Origin: a virus
Strand: one strand, 5' to 3'
Virus genome (UHGV): UHGV-0312702
Length of the DNA: 64,000 bases
In this document: piece after piece, positions 9,369 through 28,338 of the stretch
Numbering within the stretch: the stretch's first letter is position 1
Layout: every line of letters starts with the position of its first letter
The notes under the pieces: model-generated
What the model saw: only the letters and a program-made list of their open reading frames with translations
Told to the model about the DNA's origin: nothing
Databases searched by the model: none
Position numbers and translations under genes: made by a program

Positions 9369-10475
9369 TTATTCGCCTTTAGCATCAGCGCGAACATCTA
9401 CCAGCAACTGAGGACGAGTACAGTATGGCAGCATGTAAGAGTGAGCTTCGAAGTCAATACCTTCGTCACGGTCTTTTTCGTATTCGAATACGTACAGTTC
9501 CTGACCAAGTGTATTTGCGTAACCCATCTTAGGACATGGACCATATGCAACTTCGAAGATGTTGTTAGCTTCACCCAGCATAGATACGTTAGGGAAAGCA
9601 TGACCAACACCAACAGTGTCTGCTACGCTGTCAATGCTCACCAGAGTGTGAACCTTACCACGCTTGTCTTTGAACTTACCGTTGTACTGGACAAACTTAA
9701 CACCACCGTAGTAGAAAGTGTTCATGTGAGCCTGAACGCCGTCAGTACCACCAGTTCTCAGAGAACCAGTAATCTGTTGCCAAGCCAGCGGAGTCTGCTG
9801 TGCAAGATAAGCGTCACGAATCTTAGGATGCTTAGTCAGCTTGCTGAAGAATACACGGTCAACAACTACGTGAATTTCTTCACCGTTGATTACAGTGCCA
9901 GTCTTAGCTTCGTCTTCCATGTGCATACGAAGTTCTTCAATAGAAGCGTCGATGTCAGCATTAGGGTTGTCAAGGTCGAAGTAAATAGTCTTCTTCTCAA
10001 CGTCGAACTGCTTGTACAGGTCAGCGTACAGAGTACCACGAGCATCAACAACTTTACCCTTCAGAGCTTGCATGAACAGGAACTCACGAGTAATATCGAA
10101 CTTGGTACGAATCTTCATCAGCTTCTTAGCACGTACTACAGCTTCAGTAGTCAGTTCGTTTGCAGTGCCTGGCTGACGTACACCCTGAATTTCATCAGGA
10201 GTAATGCTTTCAACTTCTTTGAAGTACATCATTGGGAAGCTGATTTGACGAACACGCTCAGGTGCGCTAGTCTCTGCTTTACGGCTGTCACGGTCTACCG
10301 CATCAAGCAAGCTAACATCCCAATCAGTCAAGTCCATAAGGAAAGTAGTTTGGGTGATTGGTGCTGAACGGAACAGACCTAAGTTGGAAATATACCCATA
10401 AGTATTTGGGATAGACTGGACTTCACCAGTCAGGTCAGCAAGGAAAAATCTGCTTTTTTCAGAATTAGTCAACAT
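9369..10475 (-). CDS. major capsid protein (HK97-fold-like), 368 aa
   Basis: Position immediately after protease/scaffold and decoration-sized ORF; size typical of an HK97-like capsid protein. Confidence 0.7.
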   Translation of the reverse strand: MLTNSEKSRFFLADLTGEVQSIPNTYGYISNLGLFRSAPITQTTFLMDLTDWDVSLLDAVDRDSRKAETSAPERVRQISFPMMYFKEVESITPDEIQGVRQPGTANELTTEAVVRAKKLMKIRTKFDITREFLFMQALKGKVVDARGTLYADLYKQFDVEKKTIYFDLDNPNADIDASIEELRMHMEDEAKTGTVINGEEIHVVVDRVFFSKLTKHPKIRDAYLAQQTPLAWQQITGSLRTGGTDGVQAHMNTFYYGGVKFVQYNGKFKDKRGKVHTLVSIDSVADTVGVGHAFPNVSMLGEANNIFEVAYGPCPKMGYANTLGQELYVFEYEKDRDEGIDFEAHSYMLPYCTRPQLLVDVRADAKGE

Positions 10476-16616: not shown

Positions 16617-16692
16617 TGGAGAATCCGAAGGGACTCGAACCCTTATAAACCTGTTTTGCAGACAGGCACATAGCCATTTCTGTCACGGATTC
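16617..16692 (-). tRNA. tRNA-Cys (anticodon GCA)
   Basis: Hand-folded cloverleaf: acceptor CGGATTC pairs with GAATCCG, T-loop TTCGAGT, anticodon loop CTGCAAA, CCA encoded. Confidence 0.75.
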
Positions 16693-16696
16693 AAAT

Positions 16697-16789
16697 TGGA
16701 GGAAGATACCAGACTTGAACTGGTACACCGATTTCTCAGCTACTGGCAGTTTAGCAAACTGCTCCCTTACCTTTTAGGGTTAATCTTCC
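16697..16789 (-). tRNA. tRNA-Ser (anticodon GCT), class II with long variable arm
   Basis: Acceptor GGAAGAT/ATCTTCC, anticodon stem GCAGT/ACTGC with loop TTGCTAA, long variable arm, T-loop TTCAAGT. Confidence 0.7.
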
Positions 16790-16790
16790 A

Positions 16791-17525
16791 TTATTTCTGT
16801 AATGCGCTCTTCATTTCTGGTGTTGCAATAGTGTCAATCACACCAGTTTTACAAGCATCATCAAACCAGTCTGGTAAGATACCTGCTAAGAACCCATTGA
16901 TATTCGTTTTAAGGTACTCTGCAATAAGGGCAGCTTCTTCTTCAATCATCTGCACAACTTCATCTGCATAAGCTGTAATCTTTGAGATACCTTCATTAAT
17001 CTTACTAACAGCCTGATTAGCTAAATCAGAAACAGTATCAAGACCCTTATCAATAGCATCTTGTAAGTCACTTAATACATCATTAACGCTGTCTAGTGTA
17101 TCATTAATAGCATCAATAGCTTTTTGACCATACTCTGTAGCAACACCCATAATACCGCTGAATGGTGTACAACCAACTTGTTCTCCCGCTGCACCCATAA
17201 CATTGGAATATCCCTTTGCTACCTGCATACGTGATGAAAACTCGTCAATAGACTTTTGACCGTAGTCTGTTAGGGTCTTAGTAGTTGCTGTAGTGCTTGT
17301 CAGACTCGTTGTAAAGCTGTTTAGAAGGACTGTTGTAAGTCCAGCAGCAACAAGTTTTTCCTTCATTGCAGGGTCTGTTACAGAGCTAATAGAGCTTACA
17401 AGTGATGTAGAGGCAGCTACGGTTCCACCTAGAACTGCTGCACCAGTAATAAGGGGGTTAGAAAACCCTTTACCAGTTTTTAAGAGATTAAAAATCTCCT
17501 TACCTTGTCCTGTCATCTCTTTCAT
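16791..17525 (-). CDS. hypothetical Ser/Thr-rich protein embedded in tRNA island, about 245 aa
   Basis: ORF-track start (17588, GTG) would overlap tRNA-Phe; first ATG that clears the tRNA is at 17525. Confidence 0.5.
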   Translation of the reverse strand: MKEMTGQGKEIFNLLKTGKGFSNPLITGAAVLGGTVAASTSLVSSISSVTDPAMKEKLVAAGLTTVLLNSFTTSLTSTTATTKTLTDYGQKSIDEFSSRMQVAKGYSNVMGAAGEQVGCTPFSGIMGVATEYGQKAIDAINDTLDSVNDVLSDLQDAIDKGLDTVSDLANQAVSKINEGISKITAYADEVVQMIEEEAALIAEYLKTNINGFLAGILPDWFDDACKTGVIDTIATPEMKSALQK

Positions 17526-17543
17526 TAAGCACCTTTGAAATTG

Positions 17544-17618
17544 GTAGTCCAGTGGGATTTGAACCCTCTTCTCATGTTTTTCAGACACGCGCTTTAACCA
17601 TATAAGCTACTTGGACTA
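17544..17618 (-). tRNA. tRNA-Phe (anticodon GAA)
   Basis: Acceptor TAGTCCA/TGGACTA, anticodon stem CGTGT/ACATG, loop CTGAAAA, T-loop TTCAAAT. Confidence 0.7.
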
Positions 17619-17623
17619 TAAAT

Positions 17624-17700
17624 TGGGGTGACCTACGGGATTTGAACCCGTATAGACCATGTTCACAGCATGGGTCATTACCATTTATGATAAGGCCACA
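17624..17700 (-). tRNA. tRNA-His (anticodon GTG)
   Basis: Anticodon stem CCATG/CATGG with loop CTGTGAA; discriminator C; CCA encoded. Confidence 0.7.
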
Positions 17701-17730
17701 TTTAAGGACTCTCGTAAGAACCCTTAGAAG

Positions 17731-17806
17731 TGGCAGCGGCATAAGGATTTGAACCTTAATAGGACAGCTTCAGAGACTGTTGCATTGCCAGTTATGCTAT
17801 ACCGCT
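17731..17806 (-). tRNA. tRNA-Gln (anticodon CTG)
   Basis: Acceptor AGCGGTA/TGCCGCT, anticodon loop CTCTGAA, T-loop present. Confidence 0.65.
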
Positions 17807-17811
17807 AAATT

Positions 17812-17890
17812 TGGTACTCCATATCGGATTCGAACCGATACATAACACAGATTTTAAGTCTGGCCTCTCTGCCAATTGGAGTAATGGAGC
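17812..17890 (-). tRNA. tRNA with leucine anticodon TAA but class I architecture (short variable loop)
   Basis: Acceptor GCTCCAT/ATGGAGT, D-arm CTCC-AATTGGCAG-AGAG, anticodon stem CCAGA/TCTGT loop CTTAAAA, 7-nt variable loop, T-arm ATCGG-TTCGAAT-CCGAT, discriminator A. Confidence 0.6.
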
Positions 17891-17892
17891 AT

Positions 17893-17968
17893 TGGCGGGG
17901 GATGTTGGAATTGAACCAACTTCTTCGATTTCAAAGACCGAGGTTTTAACCTTGTAAACTAATCCCCT
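17893..17968 (-). tRNA. tRNA-Gln (anticodon TTG)
   Basis: Anticodon stem TCGGT/ATCGA loop CTTTGAA; T-arm GTTGG-TTCAATT-CCAAC; A1-C72 mismatch. Confidence 0.65.
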
Positions 17969-17976
17969 TTAAATCT

Positions 17977-18534
17977 TTACTTTCTTAGTGGATGAATAAA
18001 GAATGCCAACATAACTCTTTCCCTTGAGAATGCTCTTTCTTCTGGGACAACACTTTTAAGTTTCCACCCAACATAAATTCTCCAGTAAAATTGTTTACCA
18101 AAGACTTTAATTGATGGGATAAAAGCAAATAATCCCCAAGCATTGCTGTTCCACATTAGGAGATAACCTGTCTGATTATCTTCAGGGTTAGAACTTACGT
18201 TGATATTACCTTTCCACTTAGTAACATCTTTTACATCTCTTCCTAACACATGGTAAGAGAAGTTATAAGCTTTGTTTCTCCAGAGCCATCCAACTCTCTG
18301 CATATAAACACCGAGCTTACCAATCTTTCTAATCTTAGCCCATCGTTTGATATGACCTGCATCACCATCAATTGGGTTGTCATAAGTCTCCATCCATCTG
18401 AAACCAAAAGGCAGATGACCTTTCTTCTCACTGTAGAATGGGACTACGAAAGGTGCTAAGATAACTGCCAAGATTGCTGCAAATGGCTCTAACAAAGCTA
18501 AGAAAATCCATGAAGCATACTTCAAATATCTCAT
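17977..18534 (-). CDS. hypothetical membrane protein embedded in tRNA island, 185 aa
   Basis: ORF with hydrophobic N-terminus (IFLALLEPFAAILAVILAPFVVPF). Confidence 0.5.
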   Translation of the reverse strand: MRYLKYASWIFLALLEPFAAILAVILAPFVVPFYSEKKGHLPFGFRWMETYDNPIDGDAGHIKRWAKIRKIGKLGVYMQRVGWLWRNKAYNFSYHVLGRDVKDVTKWKGNINVSSNPEDNQTGYLLMWNSNAWGLFAFIPSIKVFGKQFYWRIYVGWKLKSVVPEERAFSRERVMLAFFIHPLRK

Positions 18535-18773
18535 TGTCTAATCCTAGTAAGGAGGTAAACATTATTATTTGTTTCTGAGTTTTCTGGTAAAGCTGTCTCA
18601 AAATTGACGCTTTTAAATTGTCTCCCACCAAAGTAATGACCAATAAATTTTTGTACTTTTATTGGGTCACATTCCCAGCCAACTTTCAAGAAAATGTGGG
18701 TATCTATAGTGGGAACCCTTACAAACTCAATACTATTGGAATTTTCATGTTCAACGACGATTAATGTTTGCAT
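18531..18773 (-). CDS. hypothetical protein, 80 aa
   Basis: ORF overlapping the start of the downstream gene by 4 nt. Confidence 0.4.
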   Translation of the reverse strand: MQTLIVVEHENSNSIEFVRVPTIDTHIFLKVGWECDPIKVQKFIGHYFGGRQFKSVNFETALPENSETNNNVYLLTRIRQ

Positions 18774-18791
18774 AAATCTCTCTTATTTATC

Positions 18792-18867
18792 TGGCGCAGG
18801 ATAAGGGACTTGAACCCCTATTAACAGCTTCGTAGACTGTTGCTCTATCCATTTGAACTAATCCTGC
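18792..18867 (-). tRNA. tRNA-Arg (anticodon ACG)
   Basis: Acceptor GCAGGAT/ATCCTGC, anticodon loop CTACGAA, CCA encoded. Confidence 0.7.
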
Positions 18868-18872
18868 AAAAT

Positions 18873-18950
18873 TGGTGTTCCAAGACGGATTCGAACCGTC
18901 ACTAGTACAAGGTTTGAGCTTGCATCCTCTGCCAATTGGGATACTGGAAC
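18873..18950 (-). tRNA. tRNA with leucine anticodon CAA but class I architecture
   Basis: Acceptor GTTCCAG/TTGGAAC, D-arm TCCC-AATTGGCAG-AGGA, anticodon stem GCAAG/CTTGT loop CTCAAAC, 6-nt variable loop, T-arm GACGG-TTCGAAT-CCGTC; only 84 nt available between flanking tRNAs. Confidence 0.6.
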
Positions 18951-18951
18951 A

Positions 18952-19026
18952 TGGTACTCACTAAAGGACTTGAACCTTTTTCTTCATCTTGTAAGGGTGA
19001 TGTTTTACCATATAAACTAAGCGAGT
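18952..19026 (-). tRNA. tRNA-Val (anticodon TAC)
   Basis: Acceptor ACTCGCT/AGTGAGT, anticodon loop CTTACAA, T-arm AAAGG/CCTTT. Confidence 0.65.
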
Positions 19027-19122
19027 GTGAAAGAGGTCTGAAGTTGTGCCACTAACTCAACTCCGTGGAATTTGTTACGGTCTTCAGTTGACTCAAAGTG
19101 GTCTTTCACTTGACCTCTGAAT
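19027..19122 (-). ncRNA. candidate structured small RNA in tRNA-cluster spacer (not a tRNA)
   Basis: 96-nt spacer with complementary ends (AGAGGTC ... GACCTCT) and nested complementary segments (GTGAAAGA/TCTTTCAC, CTGAAG/CTTCAG); no T-loop motif. Confidence 0.3.
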
Positions 19123-19198
19123 TGGTGCTCCCACAAGGATTCGAACCCTGATAAGTTGCTTACAAGGCAACCGTAATAGCCAATTATACGATAGGAGC
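19123..19198 (-). tRNA. tRNA-Thr (anticodon TGT)
   Basis: Anticodon stem GTTGC/GCAAC with loop CTTGTAA; T-loop TTCGAAT. Confidence 0.7.
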
Positions 19199-19205
19199 AT
19201 TAATT

Positions 19206-19280
19206 TGGAGCATCCAGAGGGAATCGAACCCTCAACCTCAGTTTGGAAGACTGTAATTTTCCCGTTTAAACTATGGATGC
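19206..19280 (-). tRNA. tRNA-Gly (anticodon TCC)
   Basis: Acceptor GCATCCA/TGGATGC perfect 7 bp, anticodon loop CTTCCAA. Confidence 0.7.
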
Positions 19281-19286
19281 ACTAAT

Positions 19287-19362
19287 TGGTGGAGAAGCAG
19301 GGAATTGAACCCTGTACTTAAGTTTGCAAAACTTATGTTTTAACCATGTAAACTACATCCCC
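19287..19362 (-). tRNA. tRNA-Ala (anticodon TGC)
   Basis: Anticodon stem TAAGT/ACTTA loop TTTGCAA; G3-U70 wobble pair present (Ala identity element); T-arm CAGGG-TTCAATT-CCCTG. Confidence 0.7.
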
Positions 19363-19368
19363 AATGTT

Positions 19369-19444
19369 TGGTACAGGTGGAGGGAATTGAACCCATCGTC
19401 TTACTGATTAAGAGTCAGCCGCATAACCATTTTGCTACACCTGC
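19369..19444 (-). tRNA. tRNA-Lys (anticodon CTT)
   Basis: Acceptor GCAGGTG/CACCTGT, anticodon loop CTCTTAA. Confidence 0.65.
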
Positions 19445-19451
19445 ATTAATT

Positions 19452-19528
19452 TGGTACACCTAGAGAGATTCGAACTCACACTGAGCAGATTCTAAGTCTG
19501 CTGCCTCTACCAGTTGGGCTATAGGTGC
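19452..19528 (-). tRNA. tRNA with leucine anticodon TAG but class I architecture
   Basis: Acceptor GCACCTA/TAGGTGT, D-arm GCC-CAACTGGTAGA-GGC, anticodon stem GCAGA/TCTGC loop CTTAGAA, 5-nt variable loop. Confidence 0.6.
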
Positions 19529-19786
19529 ATTAAATCTTTTTAGAGAACTTCTAAGAACCTAAGCAACAAGGTTCCACAACAAGCTGTAATAACCTTAGAA
19601 GCCCTCTAAAAAGACCTAAAAAGGTCTTTGCATAGTCTTGTTTAATCCGGTGACTAGAACCTTTGGAGAGCTTGATATTATCTCTTCTCCGTGACACCTA
19701 CTAGGTGCTTTACTGTGCGTGTACGACAATACACGAGGGATACCAAAGCAACATCCGAATGAAGCTTGGCTTTAAATCTTATTAGG

Positions 19787-19874
19787 CGGTAAGTAAAGGA
19801 GTCGAACCCTCACCGTATCTCTACAGTGGCAACTGTTTTCAAGACAGTTTGGCTACCATTAGCCGCTACCTACC
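19787..19874 (-). tRNA. tRNA-Ser (anticodon TGA), class II
   Basis: 88 nt, acceptor GGTAGGT/ACTTACC, anticodon stem ACTGT/ACAGT loop CTTGAAA, long variable arm; CCA not encoded. Confidence 0.6.
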
Positions 19875-19887
19875 CCTAATAAGACTT

Positions 19888-19970
19888 TGGCATGGGACGG
19901 AGGAGTTGAACCCCTTTGAAACGGTTTTGGAGGCCGTTGCTCATGCCTTAGAGTCTTAACATCGTCCCAC
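19888..19970 (-). tRNA. tRNA-Trp (anticodon CCA), atypically long 5' half
   Basis: Acceptor GTGGGAC/GTCCCAT, anticodon loop CTCCAAA, T-arm GGGG-TTCAACT-CCTC; D-arm region about 7 nt longer than canonical. Confidence 0.5.
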
Positions 19971-20112
19971 ACTATAATTCGAAACTTACCGTATTATCTC
20001 AACACTGTAAAGCCCCTTCTCAGATTATTTACATGTTCTGGAAAACATGAGATACAGACCACCTCCCTACAGGAAGACCCGCTTAGGTCGTCTAAGTAAT
20101 CTGCTAACTAAT

Positions 20113-20189
20113 TGGCACACCCTACAGGATTCGAACCTGTAACTAACGATTTAGAAGACCGTTGCTCTATCCAATTGAACTAAGGGTGC
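20113..20189 (-). tRNA. tRNA-Arg (anticodon TCT)
   Basis: Anticodon stem ACGGT/ATCGT loop CTTCTAA; acceptor GCACCCT/AGGGTGT. Confidence 0.65.
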
Positions 20190-20526
20190 ATTAATCTTTA
20201 AAGACTCTCTTAGAAAGCCCTTAAAGATGCCCACCTTATTAATCATACCGTGGGCTAGTACGCCAAATTCTTTGATGAGGGATTGGAAGACCTCACTGGT
20301 GTTTAGCCTATCAAGCTACTGCCAGAAAAACATTGTCGTTTGCATTTATTTTAAATTTGCAAAATAGACGCTACGCAACGAAAACTATTCAGAATATGTA
20401 CAACAAATTTCCCCACATTGTGTTACGTCTAACGCTCATGTATTGGTGTTTGAATTATACATATTATGAATTATTTTTAGTTACTATAAAGTAGTCACAT
20501 CTCAATGTCAACAACTTTATTGAAAT

Positions 20527-20601
20527 TGGTTGTAGGTGAGGGTATCGAACCCTCTTCTAACGGTTATCAGCCGTTTGCATTACCATTTATGCTAACCCAC
20601 A
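20527..20601 (-). tRNA. tRNA-Ile (anticodon GAT)
   Basis: Anticodon stem AACGG/CCGTT loop CTGATAA; T-arm GAGGG-TTCGATA-CCCTC. Confidence 0.7.
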
Positions 20602-20602
20602 A

Positions 20603-20680
20603 TTGGAGGTTCAGGTGGGAATCGAACCCACATTCATAGGGCTTATGAAACCCCTGCATTACCTTATCTGCGACTGAACC
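20603..20680 (-). tRNA. tRNA-Met (anticodon CAT), elongator-like
   Basis: Perfect acceptor GGTTCAG/CTGAACC, anticodon stem GGGGT/GCCCT loop TTCATAA. Confidence 0.6.
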
Positions 20681-20684
20681 ATAT

Positions 20685-20760
20685 TGGTAGAAGTGGAGGG
20701 ATTCGAACCCATCGCCTGTCAGATTAAAAGTCTGCCGCATCACCATTCTGCTACACTTCC
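20685..20760 (-). tRNA. tRNA-Lys (anticodon TTT)
   Basis: Acceptor GGAAGTG/CACTTCT, anticodon loop CTTTTAA. Confidence 0.65.
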
Positions 20761-20909
20761 ATTAAATTATCTTTGTAGATAAGCTACCCAGACTTGCTTA
20801 AGGTCTGTAGCGATGTGCCTTGTTGGGTTTAAATCTAGAATTTACCCTTTCACCCTTTGTGGTCGCATACTCACAGGTAAGCTTAATAGCTCACCTACAA
20901 AGATAATTA

Positions 20910-21041
20910 CCAGACCGTTGTTTATCATCTTAAGTGCTACCATTACACCAACTCGACATCTGCCGAGTGAAGGAATCGAACCTTCGCCTTTTCTTTACCG
21001 GAGAAATAGATTGTTTAAGTTTTGCTGTAAACGGTCTTCTG
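20910..21041 (-). repeat. bounded spacer unit D (CCAGACC ... TGCTGTAAACGGTCTTCTG) containing a tRNA-like T-arm
   Basis: Shares both end motifs with units at 21055, 21484, 21637; contains GAAGG-AATCGAA-CCTTC (tRNA T-arm signature at 20969-20985) but no canonical anticodon loop or acceptor pairing. Confidence 0.5.
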
Positions 21042-21054
21042 TAAATTTGTTGAG

Positions 21055-21128
21055 CCAGACCAAGTTTTAAATTTTCAAAATTAAATTGGCTTGAAATTTC
21101 ATACATTCTTGCTGAATTTGGTCTTCTG
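21055..21128 (-). repeat. bounded spacer unit A (CCAGACC ... TGCTGAATTTGGTCTTCTG)
   Basis: Same terminal motifs as units B, C, D; the two ends are mutually complementary (AGACC/GGTCT). Confidence 0.5.
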
Positions 21129-21215
21129 CTCCTTTAAAGAATACTCGCAAGAACTCTTTAAGGGAGGGGCTAAATAGCCCTCTCAAAACATCATTTTGAA
21201 ATACTTATTATAATT

Positions 21216-21293
21216 TGGCGGTTACGAAGGGATTTGAACCCTCATCATCTCCCGTGACAGGGGAGTATTTTAACCAGATTAAACTACATAACC
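21216..21293 (-). tRNA. tRNA-Asp (anticodon GTC)
   Basis: Anticodon stem CTCCC/GGGAG loop CTGTCAC; acceptor GGTTATG/CGTAACC. Confidence 0.65.
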
Positions 21294-21298
21294 TTTAT

Positions 21299-21386
21299 TG
21301 GTGTGCCGTGTAGGAGTCGAACCTACCGAGTCTCAATGACAAGGGATTTACAGTCCCCACCGCTACCATCTACGGGATAACGACAC
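21299..21386 (-). tRNA. tRNA-Tyr (anticodon GTA), class II
   Basis: 88 nt; acceptor GTGTCGT/ACGGCAC, anticodon stem GGGA/TCCC loop CTGTAAA, long variable arm. Confidence 0.65.
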
Positions 21387-21395
21387 ATTTTAATT

Positions 21396-21472
21396 TGGCG
21401 GTTAGTCAGGGATTCGAACCCTGTGCCATTCGCTTAACAGGCGACCGCACATACCTTATGTGCTTCCTAACC
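21396..21472 (-). tRNA. tRNA-Asn (anticodon GTT)
   Basis: Anticodon loop CTGTTAA; T-arm CAGGG-TTCGAAT-CCCTG. Confidence 0.65.
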
Positions 21473-21483
21473 TTAATACATTG

Positions 21484-21542
21484 CCAGACCGTGTTTTTCT
21501 TTTATCCGCAAAAAGTAGTTTGTTGCTGAATACGGTCTTCTG
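21484..21542 (-). repeat. bounded spacer unit B (CCAGACC ... TGCTGAATACGGTCTTCTG)
   Basis: 59-nt unit between tRNA-Asn and the second CAT tRNA with the same end motifs. Confidence 0.5.
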
Positions 21543-21548
21543 CAAAAT

Positions 21549-21625
21549 TGGAGGCGGGTGCAGGAGTCGAACCTGCCGATACCATGCTAATGAGACATGT
21601 GAGACGCCCTTTCTCTATACCCGCA
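21549..21625 (-). tRNA. tRNA with anticodon CAT, second copy (initiator Met or Ile-lysidine type), atypical
   Basis: Anticodon stem CATGT/GCATG loop CTCATTA (pyrimidine at 37); acceptor pairs only with a 1-72 mismatch or a 1-nt register shift; D-stem GAGA/TCTC. Confidence 0.5.
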
Positions 21626-21636
21626 ATTCTTAATGA

Positions 21637-21709
21637 CCAGACCAAATCTCTTCTTTGTCCGATTGAATGTCAGATGAATAAGATTAAATTTGCTGTAATT
21701 GGTCTTCTG
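21637..21709 (-). repeat. bounded spacer unit C (CCAGACC ... TGCTGTAATTGGTCTTCTG)
   Basis: 73-nt unit between the CAT tRNA and tRNA-Glu with the same end motifs. Confidence 0.5.
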
Positions 21710-21716
21710 TCAAAAC

Positions 21717-21791
21717 TGGTGTCGTAGACAGGATTCGAACCTGCGAGCAACTGATTGAAGGTCAGGTGGCTAACCATTTGCCTTCTACGAC
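21717..21791 (-). tRNA. tRNA-Glu (anticodon TTC), C at position 33
   Basis: Perfect acceptor GTCGTAG/CTACGAC, anticodon stem CTGA/TCAG with loop CCTTCAA. Confidence 0.55.
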
Positions 21792-21792
21792 A

Positions 21793-22149
21793 TTAAACCA
21801 TTGTAATTCCACTATGAACCTCTCTGTGGCAATTAGCGCATAGCAAAACACATTTATCAAGTTCTTTTTTAACCTTTTCCCAAGATGCACCCATAAGTTT
21901 TGATGGTGTATTCTCTTTTTCGTTTGGGTTAAGGTGATGCCATTCTAAAGCATTTTTACATTTATTATAGCCACAAATTATGCAACTATCGCCATAAAGC
22001 TTATATGCTTTCTCCCTATTGGCATCCTCTCTAAGTTTTGTCCTTAATGCACAACATTTTAGACAATTTACTCTATTACCGGCGTTACCATTCTTATGAA
22101 TGCTATGTTCAGTTAAACCATGAACTGGACATTCTTTTAAAAATCTCAT
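21793..22149 (-). CDS. HNH homing endonuclease, about 118 aa
   Basis: Cys-rich zinc-finger region plus HNH motif (EWHHLNP ... LLCANCHREVH); ORF-track start at 22227 overlaps tRNA-Pro, so the start is placed at the ATG at 22149. Confidence 0.7.
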   Translation of the reverse strand: MRFLKECPVHGLTEHSIHKNGNAGNRVNCLKCCALRTKLREDANREKAYKLYGDSCIICGYNKCKNALEWHHLNPNEKENTPSKLMGASWEKVKKELDKCVLLCANCHREVHSGITMV

Positions 22150-22166
22150 AGTAACCCCTTTAAATT

Positions 22167-22243
22167 TGGTCTCTGTTGGAGGACTTGAACCTCCGGCCTT
22201 ACCGCCCCAAACGGAACGCTCTACCAAGCTGAGCTAAACAGAG
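22167..22243 (-). tRNA. tRNA-Pro (anticodon TGG)
   Basis: Perfect acceptor CTCTGTT/AACAGAG, D-arm GCTC-AGCTTGGTA-GAGC, anticodon loop TTTGGGG, T-arm GGAGG-TTCAAGT-CCTCC. Confidence 0.75.
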
Positions 22244-22408: not shown

Positions 22409-23824
22409 TTACCAGATGTAACGGTCAATCATTACTGCTTTGAGCATTACGCTGATTGGGTCAAACTTCTCACCACCAAGCAGGGCTTTTAAAGTGGCTG
22501 GGGAGAACCCTGATACCATTGCTACACCGTTATCCTTAACAGACACTTCGCAAGTACCACTACGGTTTGCTAAGTACCAGAATACCAGTTGTGGCATTTC
22601 GTATCCAGCTTTTTTGTACTTACTACGAATTGCTTCAAAGTTTGTACGACCATTTGCACCATCAACCTGATTGAACTCCATATCAGAGAAGATGATAAGC
22701 TTACTTGGCATATCTTTCTGAGTCAAGTTGTTTCTCTTGCCTGTCTCAAGAATACGGTCAAAAGCTGCTTGTAAGTTGGTTGAACCATATTCAACATGAC
22801 GCATTACCTGACGGTGACGGTTTCGTAAATCACCACTCAGTTCGATGAAATGAGGGTTTGTTGAATAAACCATTAACTCGTTCTTAAAGCAACCTGTATT
22901 GCGTTCTGCTACATACAAGGCAAGTGATACACCAATATCGAGGGCAGTAATTGAGCCAAGATTCACCCAAGACATTGAGCTTGAAACATCAGTCATACAC
23001 AAGATGTTTTCACCTTCTGCCATCCAGTTTGGTAGTGCTTTCCACTGCTCATTAGCAACATCTGCATTACCATACTTGATAGATTTAATCACATCGTATG
23101 GATAAACAGCACCAGCATTAATCTTAGTCTCACCCTTTGATAAGGACTCAACGTAAGCTTTGTAGCGTTCTCCATCTTTACGGTTAAATAATTTTTGGTA
23201 ACGTGCAGCAGCAAGTGAAGGAATCTTACTGTAGTCAATCTTACCAAACTCATTAGCAGAGATTTTTTGTTCAACTGTATCAGATAGTGCAGACAGCAGT
23301 GTGCGGTACTCTTTCTCGCTCAAGTTTGCAAACTTACAGAAACGTTTTACAAACTGTTTGTGACGTGGTTTTACTCGTGGTAACCACTTAGCTGCTAAAC
23401 CTGCTGTTGCAGGGTCTAGTAAAGCTGCTTCTAAATGTTTGAAGGCATCTGTCTCAAAACGAGTACCTACAAAGATTTTGAAGTCATCAAAGCGACCAAG
23501 CTCTGCAATCTTATCCATAATGCGAAGAACCTGTGTAGGCTCTAAAACTTTATCTTCAATCGCTTGAAGTAAAACAGTTCGGAAAGCCTTACGCTCACCC
23601 ATACCTTCTCGTACATCTCGCATATGCAGTAAAATACGAACTGCAACATCAACATCCTCATGCAAAGCTTTGTAGAACAAGTCTGGTAAGATTTCTACAT
23701 TGCTACGGCTAGAACCAGCAGCTTTGTAAAAGTCTACAAGAGCAGACATTGATGAAGTATGGTTTACAGCACCATTTTCAGTTCGACCTGCATGAAGGTG
23801 CGCATGTTTAAATAATTCGCTCAT
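22409..23824 (-). CDS. rsr: Ro60/Rsr-like protein (TROVE-like N-terminal region plus vWA domain), 471 aa
   Basis: C-terminal vWA with MIDAS DxSxS (CMTDVSSSMS) followed by ...LIIFSDMEFN...; segment VYPYDVIKSIKYG ... ENILCMTDVSSSM parallels the Ro60 region preceding its vWA domain; recognition from memory, not searched. Confidence 0.65.
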   Translation of the reverse strand: MSELFKHAHLHAGRTENGAVNHTSSMSALVDFYKAAGSSRSNVEILPDLFYKALHEDVDVAVRILLHMRDVREGMGERKAFRTVLLQAIEDKVLEPTQVLRIMDKIAELGRFDDFKIFVGTRFETDAFKHLEAALLDPATAGLAAKWLPRVKPRHKQFVKRFCKFANLSEKEYRTLLSALSDTVEQKISANEFGKIDYSKIPSLAAARYQKLFNRKDGERYKAYVESLSKGETKINAGAVYPYDVIKSIKYGNADVANEQWKALPNWMAEGENILCMTDVSSSMSWVNLGSITALDIGVSLALYVAERNTGCFKNELMVYSTNPHFIELSGDLRNRHRQVMRHVEYGSTNLQAAFDRILETGKRNNLTQKDMPSKLIIFSDMEFNQVDGANGRTNFEAIRSKYKKAGYEMPQLVFWYLANRSGTCEVSVKDNGVAMVSGFSPATLKALLGGEKFDPISVMLKAVMIDRYIW

Positions 23825-23905: not shown

Positions 23906-24277
23906 TTATTTTTTAAGAGTCGCTACAGCAGAGAACGTTGGTTTGTTATCTGTCTGAGGTTGACCACCGTTATCGGGGGTCTTCTTAGTGTCTGCTGCAA
24001 GTGCTTTCATCTCACCTGCTGAGTGAGTAAAGATAGTTTTACCAACTTCAATCATGCTCTTGATGGTTACGTCATCTGTATTTAACCCGAACTCTGCAAG
24101 CTTAGCAGCATCCCTTGTAACAATCGCTTCAAATAACTTTGCAGCAAACTCAGCAGAATTGTCAATGGTCAGTTGAGCTTTTACAAGTGAGCTTTTGTTA
24201 CGAGAGCCTTTTGGTCTTCCAGATGGGTTTCCAGATTGGCCTTTTTTAAACTGGCCTTTGTTTGTTCTGTTTTTCAT
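23906..24277 (-). CDS. hypothetical basic protein with GNPSGRPKG motif, 123 aa
   Basis: ORF; N-terminal KGQSGNPSGRPKGSRNK suggests nucleic-acid binding. Confidence 0.45.
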   Translation of the reverse strand: MKNRTNKGQFKKGQSGNPSGRPKGSRNKSSLVKAQLTIDNSAEFAAKLFEAIVTRDAAKLAEFGLNTDDVTIKSMIEVGKTIFTHSAGEMKALAADTKKTPDNGGQPQTDNKPTFSAVATLKK

Positions 24278-24903: not shown

Positions 24904-25487
24904 CAGTAAGTTTTAATTACAATAGTGACGGCTCTGTATCAATTAATTCACCATATGCAAATGACCTATTGAAAGAGCTAGTTAATCAGTGTGATAGAGG
25001 TCTTCACTATGTTCCAAATTCTTTTAAGCAGAAGACTATTGCTAATAACTTGATGCGCGTGACGGTTACAACATCAAACCCAAACTATGACATTGATAGT
25101 GAAAGTCCTTACTCTTTAGTGGCTCTTGGAGAATGTAGTCAATTCAAACTTGTATGTCACGACTCAGAAACATTTCTTAAGGTGTTTTCAAACCTTATTC
25201 ATAATAACAAGTATGGGTATGTTGATGGGAGTGTTAACTTCTATCCAGCGAACTATACCTGTCTATTAATTGATAATATGAGAAGTAGCAAGCAAGAACC
25301 TACAGAGATTTCATTTGATGTGAACTCTAGTCCAGACGCAGAAACAAGTAATAACTTTGATATGAGTTACGCATTATCACTTAGCAAGAAATCCGAGTTC
25401 ATTGATTATGTCAATGGATTTGGTTTTAAGTTTGACGAGAGCATGAATCTCAAAAAGCTTAAGAACCTACTTAAGACCAAAGCTTAA
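24897..25487 (+). CDS. hypothetical protein, 196 aa
   Basis: ORF in + strand block. Confidence 0.5.
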   Translation: MLTVSFNYNSDGSVSINSPYANDLLKELVNQCDRGLHYVPNSFKQKTIANNLMRVTVTTSNPNYDIDSESPYSLVALGECSQFKLVCHDSETFLKVFSNLIHNNKYGYVDGSVNFYPANYTCLLIDNMRSSKQEPTEISFDVNSSPDAETSNNFDMSYALSLSKKSEFIDYVNGFGFKFDESMNLKKLKNLLKTKA

Positions 25488-25534
25488 GTATAAACAGGGG
25501 CTAATGCCCCTTTATCTATTTATAAGGATATTTA

Positions 25535-25906
25535 ATGAAGGCTAAGAGTGCAAAAGACTTTTATTGCTTCCTACAATCCTATATTAATTCCGTGGAGAAA
25601 GGTGAGAGATATAATCTTAACGATGTTATTGCATCACCTTTAACATGGAGACTAAGTAGATGGCCTGAAGAAGATATCACACCAACTAGTGAACACCCTA
25701 CCTACAAACCAGATATTAATCTCCCAGATTCAGAAAAGTTACTATACCCAATGTTCCACATTGTTGGGCTTGGTACGTTTCTTATGGATATTCAGTATGT
25801 AATTGGTAAGGGTTATAAGGTAGAAGGTATTGTTGTTGGTGATGTATCTCCACAACATAAAGGCTATTTTAGATTAAACGCACGTTTAGAGGCTAAAAAG
25901 AAATGA
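25535..25906 (+). CDS. hypothetical protein, 123 aa; paralog of the N-terminal domain of the next gene
   Basis: Shares KAK...RY...WPE.DI...YKPD...LLY...MD.QY...LNA.L pattern with the first about 120 aa of 25903-27036. Confidence 0.55.
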   Translation: MKAKSAKDFYCFLQSYINSVEKGERYNLNDVIASPLTWRLSRWPEEDITPTSEHPTYKPDINLPDSEKLLYPMFHIVGLGTFLMDIQYVIGKGYKVEGIVVGDVSPQHKGYFRLNARLEAKKK

Positions 25907-27036
25907 TTAAAGCAAAGACTTACCCAGACTTCAAAGAGTTTGTAAAGGGCTTCGTTGCAAATGTAAAGGCTGGTAAGAGATATGATTTTAGAACATATCA
26001 AGAAGCTATTTTGCCACTTACCTATAGTTCATATTGGCCTGAAGCTGATATCGCAGAAGTTGAGAAGTTTGACTACAAACCAGACTACAAAGTACCTTTT
26101 AGTGATGATTTGCTTTACAGCATCGGTGCTCAAATGAGAACTTCTGACTTCTTCATGGATTTACAATATGCAATTGTCAATGGTAAAGATGTTGATACAG
26201 TGTATTGTGAATGGTTGGCAAGAGTTAAGCCGTTCTCAATGTTAAATGCTAAGTTGAAGGATGCTATCAAACCACCATCAATCACTCAGCAACCAACCAA
26301 TCAGACAGTTAATGAGGGCGGTACACTTACCTTAAGCATTGTTGCAGCTAATGCCACAGGGTATCAGTGGAAGAAGGGTGATGAGGATATCACTAGTGCT
26401 ACCTCTGCAACTTACACAAAACAGTCAGTTGTTCCTTCTGATGCTGGTTCATACACTTGCGTTGTGTCTGGAGAGGGTGGAACAAGTGTAACTTCAGATG
26501 CAGCAACAGTCACTGTGAATGCCTTACCAGTGATTACCAAGCAACCTTCTAACCAGACCATTAATGAAGGTGGAAACATCAGCTTAGCAGTTACTGCAAC
26601 AGGTGCAACTGGTTATCAATGGAAGAAAGATGGTTCTGACATCCCTTCAGCTACAAATGCCACATATAGCAAATCTGGTGCACTTCCAGCAGATGCTGGT
26701 TCATACACTTGCGTTGTAACAGGTGCGGGAGGTTCTGTAACTTCTAACCCTGCAACAGTTACTGTGAAAGCTCTACCAGTTATCACTCAACAACCAACCA
26801 ATCAGGAAATCACTGAAGGTGAGACCTTAACGCTGAATGTTGTGGCAACAGGTGCAACAGGTTATCAGTGGAAGAAGGGTGGGGAAAACATCCCAGATGC
26901 AACGACTGCAACTTACACCAAAGAGGGTGCAACTGCTGCTGATGCAGGAAGCTACACTTGTGTAGTTACTGGCGCAGGTGGCTCTGTAACATCTAGTGCG
27001 GCAACAGTTACAGTTAACCCAGCAGGGGAGGCATAA
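25903..27036 (+). CDS. protein with paralogous N-terminal domain and three tandem Ig-like repeats, 377 aa
   Basis: Three about 83-aa repeats each with PTNQT(V/I)NEGG ... ATGYQWKK ... AGSYTCVV(S/T)G ... ATVTV; stop overlaps the endolysin start. Confidence 0.6.
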   Translation: MIKAKTYPDFKEFVKGFVANVKAGKRYDFRTYQEAILPLTYSSYWPEADIAEVEKFDYKPDYKVPFSDDLLYSIGAQMRTSDFFMDLQYAIVNGKDVDTVYCEWLARVKPFSMLNAKLKDAIKPPSITQQPTNQTVNEGGTLTLSIVAANATGYQWKKGDEDITSATSATYTKQSVVPSDAGSYTCVVSGEGGTSVTSDAATVTVNALPVITKQPSNQTINEGGNISLAVTATGATGYQWKKDGSDIPSATNATYSKSGALPADAGSYTCVVTGAGGSVTSNPATVTVKALPVITQQPTNQEITEGETLTLNVVATGATGYQWKKGGENIPDATTATYTKEGATAADAGSYTCVVTGAGGSVTSSAATVTVNPAGEA

Positions 27037-27500
27037 TGCAACTCTCAAGAAAAGGTTTAGAAGCTATTAAGTTCTTCGAAGGTCTGAAGTTAGAGGCTTA
27101 CGAAGACTCTGCCGGAATCCCAACAATCGGGTATGGGACAATCCGTATTAACGGAAAACCTGTTAAGATGGGTATGAAAATTACTGCTGAACAAGCTGAA
27201 CAGTATCTTCTCGCGGATGTTGAGAAGTTTGTTGCAGCAGTGAACAAAGCTATCAAGGTTCCAACTACTCAGAACGAGTTCGATGCACTTGTAAGTGAAA
27301 CATACAACATTGGTATCACAGCTATGCAGGATTCCACATTTATCAAGCGCCACAACGCTGGTAATAAGGTAGGTTGTGCAGAAGCTATGCAGTGGTGGAA
27401 CAAGGTTACAGTCAAAGGTCAGAAGGTCACTTCAAACGGACTGAAAAACAGACGTAGAATGGAAGCTAACATTTATCTTGACAGTGTATATCCAAAGTAA
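27036..27500 (+). CDS. endolysin, GH24 (T4-type) lysozyme, 154 aa
   Basis: Catalytic-triad context FEGLKLEAYEDSAGIPTIGYG (Glu, Asp, Thr spacing as in T4 lysozyme). Confidence 0.8.
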   Translation: MQLSRKGLEAIKFFEGLKLEAYEDSAGIPTIGYGTIRINGKPVKMGMKITAEQAEQYLLADVEKFVAAVNKAIKVPTTQNEFDALVSETYNIGITAMQDSTFIKRHNAGNKVGCAEAMQWWNKVTVKGQKVTSNGLKNRRRMEANIYLDSVYPK

Positions 27501-27551
27501 TATCTTCATAGGCTCCTTCGGGAGCCTTTTTTATTTTCTAAGGAGAAAACT

Positions 27552-27950
27552 ATGAAACTTTGGGCTAGTGACTTTGGGACTTTTAAATACACTCGCAATG
27601 GCTCAATGGTGAGAATCATTGGCAGCCAGATTGTAGTAAATGGAGATGAGGTTTCTACAAAGTTCACTGTAGAGTTAGCTGAGCTATCACCTATTACCCG
27701 TGCTAAAGATGGGCTTTTCAGGTTCGAGATTTACAAAGTAGATGAGTATGGTCGTTTCAACCCTCTTGGAGAAAGTGGATTAGATATTATTTCTGAACAC
27801 CCATTGACAGCAGAGCAATTGTCAGGTTACTATAAAACCATCCTTGAAAGAGAGTTAGCAACCCATGAATGTGAAGCAAGATACCACATCGAACGTTGTG
27901 AAACACTCAAAGAAAAGATAAAACTAGCAGAGAGAGGTTTTTATGAATAA
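27552..27950 (+). CDS. hypothetical protein, 132 aa
   Basis: ORF. Confidence 0.45.
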   Translation: MKLWASDFGTFKYTRNGSMVRIIGSQIVVNGDEVSTKFTVELAELSPITRAKDGLFRFEIYKVDEYGRFNPLGESGLDIISEHPLTAEQLSGYYKTILERELATHECEARYHIERCETLKEKIKLAERGFYE

Positions 27951-28338
27951 TAACAGTCATATCCACGTTAAAGTTGATGTCAGTCGTTACAGCGAAAATG
28001 AAGAATTAGACCTGAAAGATGCTCTTCTCTTTGAGAAGAATGGTAACCTTCATTTGCATTTTGAAGGCACAAATACATATCTCCACAGATGCCGAGATGA
28101 TGCAGATGGTTGTCCTGTTTTTGCTTGGTATAATTTAGAGTTCCCTCTTTATGCAATCCACTACCCAGATGGTGGAGAGGACTGGACTACTCAATCAATC
28201 TTTGATGAGCTTAATGGTGTTCCAGTTGAGCAAGAAGAGCAAGAACCTGTTGAACTAACCTTTACCTTCATCAAAGAAGAGAAGGTAGGTGATTTATCTG
28301 TAACTGAAGCAATTCAAGTCTCACAGGTTATTCGTTAA
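27943..28338 (+). CDS. hypothetical protein, 131 aa
   Basis: ORF. Confidence 0.45.
   Translation: MNNNSHIHVKVDVSRYSENEELDLKDALLFEKNGNLHLHFEGTNTYLHRCRDDADGCPVFAWYNLEFPLYAIHYPDGGEDWTTQSIFDELNGVPVEQEEQEPVELTFTFIKEEKVGDLSVTEAIQVSQVIR

Follow-up and report, generated by a model that had tools for sequence, protein, structure and literature searches.

The window analysed here is a stretch of 64,000 nucleotides from the virus genome UHGV-0312702, whose source is a Felix O1-like myophage (Felixounavirus). The locus of interest within it comprises three consecutive genes on the plus strand, together with a ribosome binding site and two hairpins that resemble intrinsic terminators:

25496-25511, plus strand: terminator-like hairpin (G+C-rich stem followed by a T-rich run; consensus scan), of putative function
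25524-25528, plus strand: Shine-Dalgarno sequence AAGGA of the short paralog, 6 nt 5' of its ATG
25535-25906, plus strand: open reading frame of the short paralog (123 aa, 14.2 kDa, pI 8.6)
25903-27036, plus strand: Hex-Dec open reading frame (377 aa, 39.6 kDa, pI 4.8)
27036-27500, plus strand: endolysin open reading frame (154 aa; Pfam Phage_lysozyme PF00959, E 5e-41; PHROG endolysin)
27510-27537, plus strand: strong intrinsic-terminator-like hairpin (AGGCTCCTTCGGGAGCCT followed by a T run; consensus scan), which ends the three-gene block

The genes are packed tightly: the short open reading frame overlaps that of Hex-Dec by 4 nt (ATGA), and the Hex-Dec stop codon shares 1 nt with the endolysin start (TAATG), the latter overlap having already been noted in the sequence-only reading. 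The consensus scan revealed no terminator-like hairpin at either of these two junctions, and only two weak internal matches to the terminator consensus (26174-26201 and 27207-27227). The first hairpin, which sits between an upstream 196-aa open reading frame and the short paralog, is kept in 29/29 related loci, and phage mio and the divergent locus L033 have it too; the AAGGA motif of the short paralog is likewise retained in all related loci, L033 included, and Hex-Dec has a Shine-Dalgarno sequence of its own (GAGG). Because the genes overlap, their junctions are free of hairpins and terminator-like hairpins lie on both sides (25496-25511 and 27510-27527), we infer from the sequence that the three genes are probably co-transcribed; a search of the literature on Felixounavirus transcriptomes gave no relevant hits.

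The 377-aa protein is an ortholog of two proteins of known structure, Hex-Dec of phage Bas63 (PDB 9ncf chain S; phmmer E 1.3e-297) and gp20 of phage Sf14 (PDB 9c2d chain S; E 2e-169), both of which it matches over its full length, and it thus belongs with the Ounavirinae Hex-Dec/gp20 proteins, ‘Hoc-like’ decorations of capsid hexamer centers that have already been solved and published. Cryo-EM has visualized Hex-Dec and gp20 as monomeric Hoc-like decorations on the Bas63 and Sf14 capsids (PMC12609058, PMC11821841), and gp20 was detected in Sf14 virions by mass spectrometry (PMC11821841), as was the Felix O1 ortholog Gp36 in the virions of that phage (score 813, 14 peptides); the annotation of gene 38 in Erwinia phage phiEa21-4 reads ‘conserved structural protein’. 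The gene keeps its position directly 5' of the endolysin and outside the structural module, from which the Bas63 gene is likewise separated by more than 10 kb (PMC12609058). The capsid reconstructions and virion mass spectrometry of its orthologs therefore bear out the suggestion of a virion decoration protein whose gene lies away from the structural module, and nothing was found that contradicts the assignment. The protein would not be needed to form plaques on most laboratory hosts, judging by PhageMaP experiments on Bas63 gp124.

The Hex-Dec polypeptide can be divided into a capsid-binding domain (CapBD) at the N-terminus and a string of immunoglobulin-like units, and the protein to which it is expected to dock is encoded some 15 kb away:

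9369-10475, minus strand: major capsid protein (~15 kb from Hex-Dec; nearly identical to the Bas63 major capsid protein, 9ncf_A, E 9e-248)
25903-26262, plus strand: CapBD of Hex-Dec (aa 1-120), with R79 and R107 as its anchor residues
26272-26523, plus strand: Ig-like (I-set) unit 1 (aa 124-207), corresponding to Bas63 unit 1 (92% identity)
26524-26772, plus strand: Ig-like (I-set) unit 2 (aa 208-290), corresponding to Bas63 unit 2 (89% identity)
26773-27033, plus strand: Ig-like (I-set) unit 3 with a short C-terminal tail (aa 291-377), corresponding to Bas63 unit 4 (95% identity)

The CapBD (aa 1-120) shares 98% identity with the modelled portion of 9ncf_S, finds no PDB match other than 9ncf_S and 9c2d_S, and evolves under strong constraint (dN/dS = 0.044), with R79 and R107 invariant in 29/29 genomes. 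The full-length AlphaFold2 model reached a pLDDT of just 35-55 in the N-terminal domain, and so was not used for that part of the protein. A published description of the domain as two pseudo-C2 lobes has no counterpart in its sequence (hhalign of the two halves, searching for a trace of internal duplication, returned a probability of at most 0.3%), and the pseudo-symmetry is therefore structural only. In Sf14, residue D221 of the capsid protein pairs with R79 and R107 of gp20, whose CapBD comprises the N-terminal 118 aa (PMC11821841), and the same aspartate is present in the capsid protein of the phage analysed here (...KIRDAYL...). In both cases the capsid has T=9 geometry, and the N-terminal 118-120 aa of the ortholog occupy the center of those hexamers that are pentamer-proximal, while the Ig domains project outward (PMC12609058, PMC11821841). 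The true-3-fold hexamers exclude the protein because D221 is displaced there (PMC11821841), and neither cryo-EM paper reports density on the other hexamers (PMC12609058, PMC11821841).

By homology to these two virions, the head would be assembled first, after which a single Hex-Dec monomer would insert its CapBD into the central depression of a hexamer. The hexamers so occupied would be the pentamer-proximal (quasi-3-fold) ones of a T=9 capsid, so that each icosahedral asymmetric unit would have a single copy and each head a nominal 60, and each copy would be held by salt bridges that its R79 and R107 form with the D221 residues of capsid protein subunits.

That the remainder of the protein consists of three tandem Ig-like modules of about 83 aa, as had been proposed from the sequence, is supported by several lines of analysis. 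The units (83-84 aa each, the third proper spanning aa 291-373) are 65-73% identical to one another; the Pfam families Ig_3, Ig_2 and I-set each match three stretches with scores above their gathering thresholds (whole-protein E 5e-33 to 3e-25); AlphaFold2 predicts three all-beta domains with a pLDDT of ~95; and the nearest solved folds identified by Foldseek are I-set arrays (titin I67-I69, Robo1 and LRIG1, all with a probability of 1.00). Tandem Repeats Finder recovered no long-period DNA repeat in 25400-27600, because the units have diverged at the level of DNA (units 2 and 3 are 68% identical). Relatives encode Hex-Dec in forms of 210, 294, 377 and 460 aa, which differ in steps of whole units, and variation of the Ig copy number from 1 to 4 across the genus has already been published (PMC12609058); units may have been gained and lost as wholes, presumably by recombination between repeats. 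By homology to the solved virions, the three acidic I-set domains would reach outward as a flexible fiber, which might adhere weakly to surfaces or glycans in the manner of Hoc, or might modulate the aggregation of particles.

Among the systems that have been described, the closest is Hex-Dec of Bas63 (Escherichia phage JohannRWettstein; bas63_0124, PMC12609058), in which the gene again lies between a short paralog and the endolysin, capsid D221 is also present, the CapBD is 98% identical and the Ig units are 89-95% identical. The Bas63 protein differs in having four Ig units (460 aa), whereas the 377-aa protein has three, which map to Bas63 units 1, 2 and 4 and leave Bas63 unit 3 without a counterpart. 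Shigella phage Sf14 gp20 (PDB 9c2d/9c3a chain S, PMC11821841) belongs to the same family, with three Ig units and the same R79/R107-D221 anchor, is confined to pentamer-proximal hexamers and is found in virions by mass spectrometry, but comes from a different genus (Mooglevirus) and carries more diverged Ig units. Phage T4 Hoc resembles Hex-Dec as an acidic, non-essential monomer that places a string of Ig-like domains at hexamer centers; it differs in occupying all T4 hexamers rather than a subset, and its CapBD is C-terminal, of distinct topology and without sequence similarity, so that the domain order is reversed (PMC12609058). Membership in the T4 Hoc family itself was considered and rejected: besides that reversed order, matches to the ‘Hoc-like head decoration’ profiles of PHROG are confined to the Ig region (residues 121-371), and the CapBD is unmatched in the PDB outside 9ncf_S and 9c2d_S. 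The T5 decoration protein pb10 (PDB 5lxk, 8zvi) contributes an Ig domain that matches Hex-Dec unit 3 (E 4e-12), but it possesses a single such domain, and its CapBD is unrelated to that of Hex-Dec at the level of sequence.

The proximity of Hex-Dec to a lysozyme had also invited the proposal that the Ig-repeat protein might serve the endolysin as an accessory that targets the cell wall or carbohydrates; it would then act in lysis rather than in the virion. Three observations speak for this: the Hex-Dec stop codon overlaps the endolysin start, Ig-like domains are able to bind carbohydrates, and NCBIfam returns a weak match to an exoglucanase Ig-like region (24 bits, where the cutoff is 1950). 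The idea is not borne out, and we consider it very improbable. Cryo-EM shows the orthologs, for which it is already refuted, on the capsid, and virion proteomes contain them; the N-terminus carries a CapBD with conserved anchor residues; and no cell-wall-binding module (LysM, SPOR, PG_binding, SH3 and similar) was matched in either protein by Pfam or NCBIfam at E values up to 0.1 or 0.01. Furthermore, the two genes stand side by side throughout the subfamily, in an old synteny that persists even in a lineage whose homolog lacks any Ig domain, and annotated terminators part the two genes in phiEa21-4. Hex-Dec would be expressed with the endolysin simply because both belong to this long-standing syntenic block, with no role in lysis. 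Assignment to the tail, as a tail protein or tail-associated adhesin, is scarcely credible: it reflects a label found in many GenBank records and on phrog_3995 (‘tail protein’), and the occurrence of Ig domains on major tail proteins as well (seen as PHROG cross-matches via the Ig region), but it is already refuted for the orthologs by both cryo-EM studies, which place them at capsid hexamer centers (9ncf_S and 9c2d_S come from capsid reconstructions), and the Bas63 authors state explicitly that the annotation is inaccurate (PMC12609058). The practical value of the identification lies in correct annotation, since ‘tail protein’ or ‘hypothetical’ persists in most related genomes.

The 123-aa protein had been described as a clear paralog of the first 120 aa of the 377-aa protein, and this relationship is upheld: residues 1-119 align with Hex-Dec residues 2-119 at 36% identity (BLASTP E 2e-17), the corresponding PHROG profiles cross-match (phrog_4463 against the long protein, 5e-16; phrog_3995 against the short one, 1.4e-15), and phmmer reaches both 9ncf_S and 9c2d_S with an E value of 3e-12. 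An AlphaFold2 model of the short protein superimposes on those same two chains (Foldseek TM 0.69-0.71, probability 1.00) and on no other PDB fold. Sequence and model thus indicate that it is a true paralog of the CapBD, stand-alone and Ig-less. It is a full-length member of PHROG 4463 (E 7e-78), which carries no annotation (function unknown), and its C-terminus lies 3-5 residues past the domain, so that it displays no extension; its length is held at 122-124 aa in all lineages. Taken together, the locus is very probably best explained as the Felixounavirus Hex-Dec gene preceded by a tandem duplicate of its CapBD alone. An exhaustive profile search for homologs yielded just 12 clusters, word-indexed searches reached close relatives only, and no timing of the duplication relative to Kolesnikvirus is claimed, the printed bootstraps of the Hex-Dec clade in the neighbor-joining tree being unreliable after re-rooting.

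The two copies have followed different courses. The short paralog is under purifying selection (dN/dS = 0.126 over 393 pairs), evolves approximately three times faster than the Hex-Dec CapBD at non-synonymous sites, and differs from it at 26 sites that are invariant within each family. The position of R79 is occupied by glycine in 29/29 genomes, as it is in the divergent copy of L033, and the segment around this lost arginine is the most conserved region of the protein; that of R107 is variable among the 29 genomes (Q15/H11/N2/K1), with arginine only in L033. Distant single-copy homologs do not all have arginine at these two positions either (S, D and K are also seen), and the loss of R79 and R107 in the short paralog is therefore no proof of lost capsid binding.

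A search for the short paralog in published particles gave consistently negative results. No PDB chain corresponds to it, though Bas63 and Sf14 both encode one; the Felix O1 ortholog Gp37 is not in the virion proteome, in which proteins of 9.7-13.7 kDa were detected; Sf14 virion mass spectrometry does not list it (PMC11821841); and the text of the VpaE1 paper leads us to infer that the ortholog gp40 is absent from those virion proteins as well. The wV8 ‘proteome’ paper concerns the tail fiber only. The protein should yield five good tryptic peptides, among them DFYCFLQSYINSVEK, YNLNDVIASPLTWR and VEGIVVGDVSPQHK. Failure to detect the short paralog by mass spectrometry or cryo-EM is negative evidence. 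The gene receives no mention in the literature searched, nor in the main text of the PhageMaP study (Bas63 g125), and no mention of the kinship of PHROG 4463 with the Hex-Dec CapBD was found in related papers (PMC11821841 among them); its role appears to be unreported.

Several roles for such a protein can be envisaged. It could be a second, Ig-less decoration, bound to the 20 true-3-fold hexamers or to a few special sites and missed through symmetry averaging or low copy number: it shares the CapBD fold, it is maintained by purifying selection, the true-3-fold hexamers are closed to Hex-Dec by the displacement of D221, and the very residue that pairs with D221 (R79) is replaced by a strongly conserved hydrophobic segment. 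This arrangement is nonetheless unlikely, given that neither paper saw density on other hexamers (an asymmetric reconstruction of Sf14 also exists), that no PDB chain represents the protein, that it is missing from the virion proteins of Felix O1 and, by inference, VpaE1 despite its five good peptides, and that natural deletions of the gene are viable.

Those deletions (the gene is lost or decayed in ~20/253 records, or ~8% of relatives, with no obvious consequence; phages mio, REP9 and Z31 lack it) bring up the more skeptical view that the 123-aa frame is a decaying or neutral duplicate, serving for instance as an upstream reading frame that couples translation into Hex-Dec through the ATGA overlap, and its threefold faster non-synonymous evolution would agree with this. 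That view is improbable. Besides its low dN/dS, the frame is intact (122-124 aa) in all 29 genomes that were inspected closely, and tblastn recovers it with full coverage in 233 records; it is retained beside Hex-Dec in a lineage at only 47% identity, with 82 near-invariant columns and a conserved motif of its own; and Hex-Dec, in addition to having its own GAGG, is intact and annotated in phage mio, where the upstream frame is missing. What the viable deletions do imply is that the function of the short paralog is not essential. Fusion of the two products into a double-CapBD decoration protein by programmed -1 frameshifting, suggested by the -1 register of Hex-Dec and by the end of the short frame (...GCT AAA AAG AAA TGA, similar to the dnaX slippery site), was rejected as barely conceivable, since the AAAAAG run is confined to Felixounavirus (20/29 loci), is replaced by AAGAAA or AATAAA in Mooglevirus/Suspvirus and is absent in L033, no Gp37 peptides were found in Felix O1 virions, and the solved Hex-Dec chains begin at residue 1 of the annotated protein.

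We tentatively favor a short paralog that would be a soluble, non-virion protein, its retuned R79 surface still addressing the capsid protein or Hex-Dec inside the cell. It might, for example, occupy hexamer centers transiently during head assembly, and would then be a dispensable fine-tuning factor that stays outside the finished particle. Somewhat less likely, and doubtful as matters stand, is the more specific proposal that the protein has been neofunctionalized by trading the arginine anchor for a conserved hydrophobic surface, becoming either a capsomer-specific cap (of the 20 true-3-fold hexamers or of procapsid hexamers) or a regulator of the place and time of Hex-Dec binding; if true, the pair would illustrate, in a natural setting, how a decoration protein comes to tell quasi-equivalent hexamers apart.

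With the 377-aa protein accounted for, the remaining interest of the locus resides in its short neighbor, a conserved lone CapBD with a remodelled anchoring surface that is missing from virion structures and proteomes alike. If it still addresses capsomers, it could help to explain why, of the two classes of hexamer in a T=9 capsid, Hex-Dec is found on one only, and it could offer a compact ‘handle’ to those who engineer Felix O1-like therapeutic phages for capsid display.

The 377-aa protein of the window is, about as securely as homology allows, a member of the Hex-Dec/gp20 family of capsid decoration proteins, and every defining feature of that family that can be tested is present. The genes concerned are:

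9369-10475, minus strand: major capsid protein, near-identical to 9ncf_A, with D221
25535-25906, plus strand: short paralog, 123 aa (ORF listing)
25903-27036, plus strand: Hex-Dec, 377 aa (ORF listing)
27036-27500, plus strand: endolysin, 154 aa (Phage_lysozyme PF00959, E 5e-41)

A sequence search of the entire PDB with the long protein returned two overwhelming matches: chain S of 9ncf (an 'Immunoglobulin-like domain protein' in the Bas63 icosahedral capsid; E 1.3e-297) and chain S of 9c2d and 9c3a (the Sf14 capsid; E 2e-169). Hex-Dec/gp20 is a monomeric, Hoc-like decoration protein, present once per asymmetric unit and, within the T=9 capsid, only on hexamers next to a pentamer (quasi-3-fold, facet-edge); its N-terminal ~118-120 residues form a capsid-binding domain in the hexamer centre, and its Ig domains are flexible and without resolved density (PMC12609058, PMC11821841). 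In Sf14 the anchors of the domain are R79 and R107, which engage D221 of the capsid protein subunits, and gp20 was found by mass spectrometry (PMC11821841); the orthologous Felix O1 Gp36 (numbering verified) was among the best-detected virion proteins (score 813, 14 peptides). The capsid-binding domain in the window is 98% identical to its Bas63 counterpart and carries both arginines, which show no variation across all 29 related genomes. By homology with these orthologs, Hex-Dec would dock at the centres of one hexamer class only, via R79 and R107 to D221, and its Ig region would project as a flexible fibre that, by analogy with T4 Hoc, may give weak adhesion or aggregation control. The sequence-only reading had offered a virion decoration protein encoded outside the structural module as one possibility; this is borne out by the orthologs on the two capsids and by the position of the Bas63 gene, >10 kb outside that module (PMC12609058). 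PhageMaP reports that Bas63 can do without gp124, with strain S17-1 as the exception, on which the gene is needed more. Given the full-length alignment, AlphaFold2 produced a poor, all-helical model (pLDDT 35-55) of the capsid-binding domain of Hex-Dec (25903-26262, plus strand); the Sf14 authors also state that AlphaFold misrepresents this domain (PMC11821841).

Residues 124-373 of Hex-Dec comprise three units of 83-84 aa (pairwise 65-73% identical) that match Pfam Ig_3, Ig_2 and I-set, all above gathering scores, and that AlphaFold2 predicts as all-beta domains (pLDDT about 95), whose nearest solved folds are arrays of I-set domains in tandem (titin I67-I69 and Robo1, for example); the three Ig-like repeats first read from the sequence are thus confirmed by profile search and structure prediction alike, and the rest of that sequence-only observation holds as well. 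The window units pair one-to-one with Bas63 units 1, 2 and 4 (92%, 89% and 95% identity), and the window protein therefore differs from that of Bas63 by exactly one whole unit. Over 29 loci the protein measures 210, 294, 377 or 460 aa (1 to 4 units), a pattern suggesting that Ig domains are gained and lost unit by unit through recombination. The copy number in the window agrees with the published picture, in which the number of Ig domains varies from one to four within the genus (PMC12609058), and is nothing new in kind. T4 Hoc and T5 pb10 work like Hex-Dec, but Hex-Dec stands outside the Hoc family: its domain order is reversed, its capsid-binding domain is unrelated and Hoc-like profile matches are limited to the Ig region.

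Taken as a whole, the finding is already known, and the short paralog is the only part of the block that lacks a prior explanation. The residual new element, modest but testable, lies in recognising the 'hypothetical protein' next door (PHROG 4463) as a stand-alone, diverged copy of the capsid-binding domain; neither structural paper applies the words 'paralog' or 'duplication' to it (PMC12609058, PMC11821841), and the Bas63 copy (g125) is never named in the PhageMaP main text. Its paralogy with the N-terminus of the long protein, also proposed from the sequence, holds at 36% identity over Hex-Dec residues 2-119 (E 2e-17), and the PHROG profiles of the two cross-hit. The ORF is intact (122-124 aa) in all 29 genomes examined in detail, its own Shine-Dalgarno is conserved, and its dN/dS (NG86) is 0.126 (Hex-Dec domain 0.044, endolysin 0.082). 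Short copies are monophyletic (100% bootstrap), and a divergent phage, L033, keeps one next to Hex-Dec at only 47% identity with the window copy. These data are evidence for a real, functional gene. Across the whole PDB, 9ncf_S and 9c2d_S are the sole matches (TM 0.69-0.71) to the AlphaFold2 model of its product (pLDDT 71.5, pTM 0.72), evidence for the capsid-binding-domain fold; this model, a helix plus a beta-hairpin, matched the experimental domain.

The surface of that fold has been remodelled. Position R79 is an invariant Gly in the short paralogs of every lineage; at position R107 stands Q, H, N or K, with R in L033 only; the pI is 8.6, versus 5.5 for the Hex-Dec domain; 26 columns are invariant inside each family yet differ between the two; and nowhere is the protein more conserved than in the stretch that surrounds the lost arginine (…LLYPMFHIVGLGTFLMDIQ…). 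Such a conserved, directed pattern of substitution indicates a retuned interface, not decay.

Several observations are evidence against the short paralog as a major component of virions. Its gene is present in both phages whose capsids have been solved (bas63_0125 in Bas63, and Sf14), no PDB chain has the sequence of the protein, and the remaining hexamers of both capsids are reported to be empty (PMC12609058, PMC11821841). The Felix O1 ortholog, Gp37, is missing from a virion proteome in which proteins of 9.7-13.7 kDa were found, five good tryptic peptides are predicted from the short paralog, and the text of the VpaE1 paper implies that gp40 was not detected in virions. There is also evidence that it is dispensable: it is missing from 20 of 253 related records, which have a deletion boundary in common, and in phage mio its start codon is destroyed with an internal deletion of ~220 nt, Hex-Dec remaining intact downstream. 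An intracellular, non-virion accessory role, directed at the capsid or at Hex-Dec, is tentatively favoured. It is rather unlikely that the protein caps the true-3-fold hexamers and has stayed hidden there. Still less probable is that the short ORF, which overlaps that of Hex-Dec (ATGA), is a duplicate with no function or serves only to couple translation. A frameshift fusion to Hex-Dec is rejected as scarcely credible.

The block DNA is 92-94% identical with many Felix O1-like myophages (genus Felixounavirus, subfamily Ounavirinae; top match Escherichia phage EcoM2), in whose records Hex-Dec is variously labelled 'tail protein' (a mis-annotation in most genomes; PMC12609058), 'immunoglobulin-like domain protein' or hypothetical. 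As the sequence-only reading noted, the Hex-Dec stop overlaps the endolysin start, by one base (TAATG). Overlap of the three genes, together with flanking terminator-like hairpins (25496-25511 and 27510-27527), makes their co-transcription plausible, as we infer from this layout. The G+C-rich upstream hairpin (25496-25511, plus strand), between a 196-aa ORF and the short paralog, is kept in every lineage examined, including L033 and mio; because it lies ~23 nt from the start codon, it may be an attenuator or RNA-stability element instead of a full terminator.

Other observations concern neighbouring genes and records. Bas63 g123, the ortholog of the endolysin (27036-27500, plus strand), triggers the Ec67 retron defence system and is toxic in retron-carrying cells only (PhageMaP). 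Twenty-five tRNA genes (16617-22243, minus strand), among them two tRNA-Met(cat) and duplicate isoacceptors for Gln, Leu, Lys, Arg and Ser, lie between the structural module and the block. Adjoining them is a 471-aa protein (22409-23824, minus strand; DUF2828 and DUF7788; PHROG 'RNA-binding protein') whose Bas63 ortholog, gp130, is described in PhageMaP as resembling Ro60 in structure and is reported there to counter the 'ppl' defence system; the paper speculates that some nearby 'tRNAs' may be Y-RNA-like. A 131-aa ORF (27943-28338, plus strand) has a mio ortholog annotated 'D-alanyl-D-alanine carboxypeptidase', a label that looks unsupported; the ORF matches no Pfam family, and its PHROG label is unknown function. 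GenBank GU169904.1 ('Staphylococcus phage SA1', 147 kb) holds a short paralog beside a Hex-Dec gene, both Felix O1-like, at ~142300-143560 (N-terminal domain of Hex-Dec 96% and DNA ~85% identical to the window), which points to an assembly that is chimeric or contaminated, and not to a gene of a Staphylococcus phage.

The other early proposal, a cell-wall-targeting accessory to the lysozyme, is not supported: the position of Hex-Dec beside the endolysin is an ancestral arrangement, not functional coupling with lysis, and no cell-wall-binding family matched either the short paralog or Hex-Dec. The order of ~195-aa ORF, decoration gene and endolysin is kept in Kolesnikvirus phiEa21-4 (a single 204-aa 'conserved structural protein' with one Ig domain, and annotated terminators between it and the endolysin), in L033 (an 87-kb metagenomic phage) and in a more distant lineage, where the homolog P0099 (locus L035) lacks Ig domains altogether and carries a Lys-rich tail. 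A 123-aa DUF5681 protein (23906-24277, minus strand) stands at the divergent junction upstream of the block in every lineage, including L035. An exhaustive search of 1.84 billion representative proteins, with a profile built from both subfamilies, found just 12 clusters, in the same genomic context wherever checked; the capsid-binding domain is an invention peculiar to the lineage of Ounavirinae-like phages, and its stand-alone copy is confined to the branch holding Felixounavirus, Mooglevirus, Suspvirus and L033. In the distant lineage (P0099 at L035 5001-5462, and loci L036 and L037), which is without the short paralog, the gene of the homolog directly precedes that of the endolysin, and a C-terminal tail rich in Lys and Ser, probably disordered, replaces the Ig domains. 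As a decoration protein, such a homolog would put a charged tail on display, not an Ig fibre.
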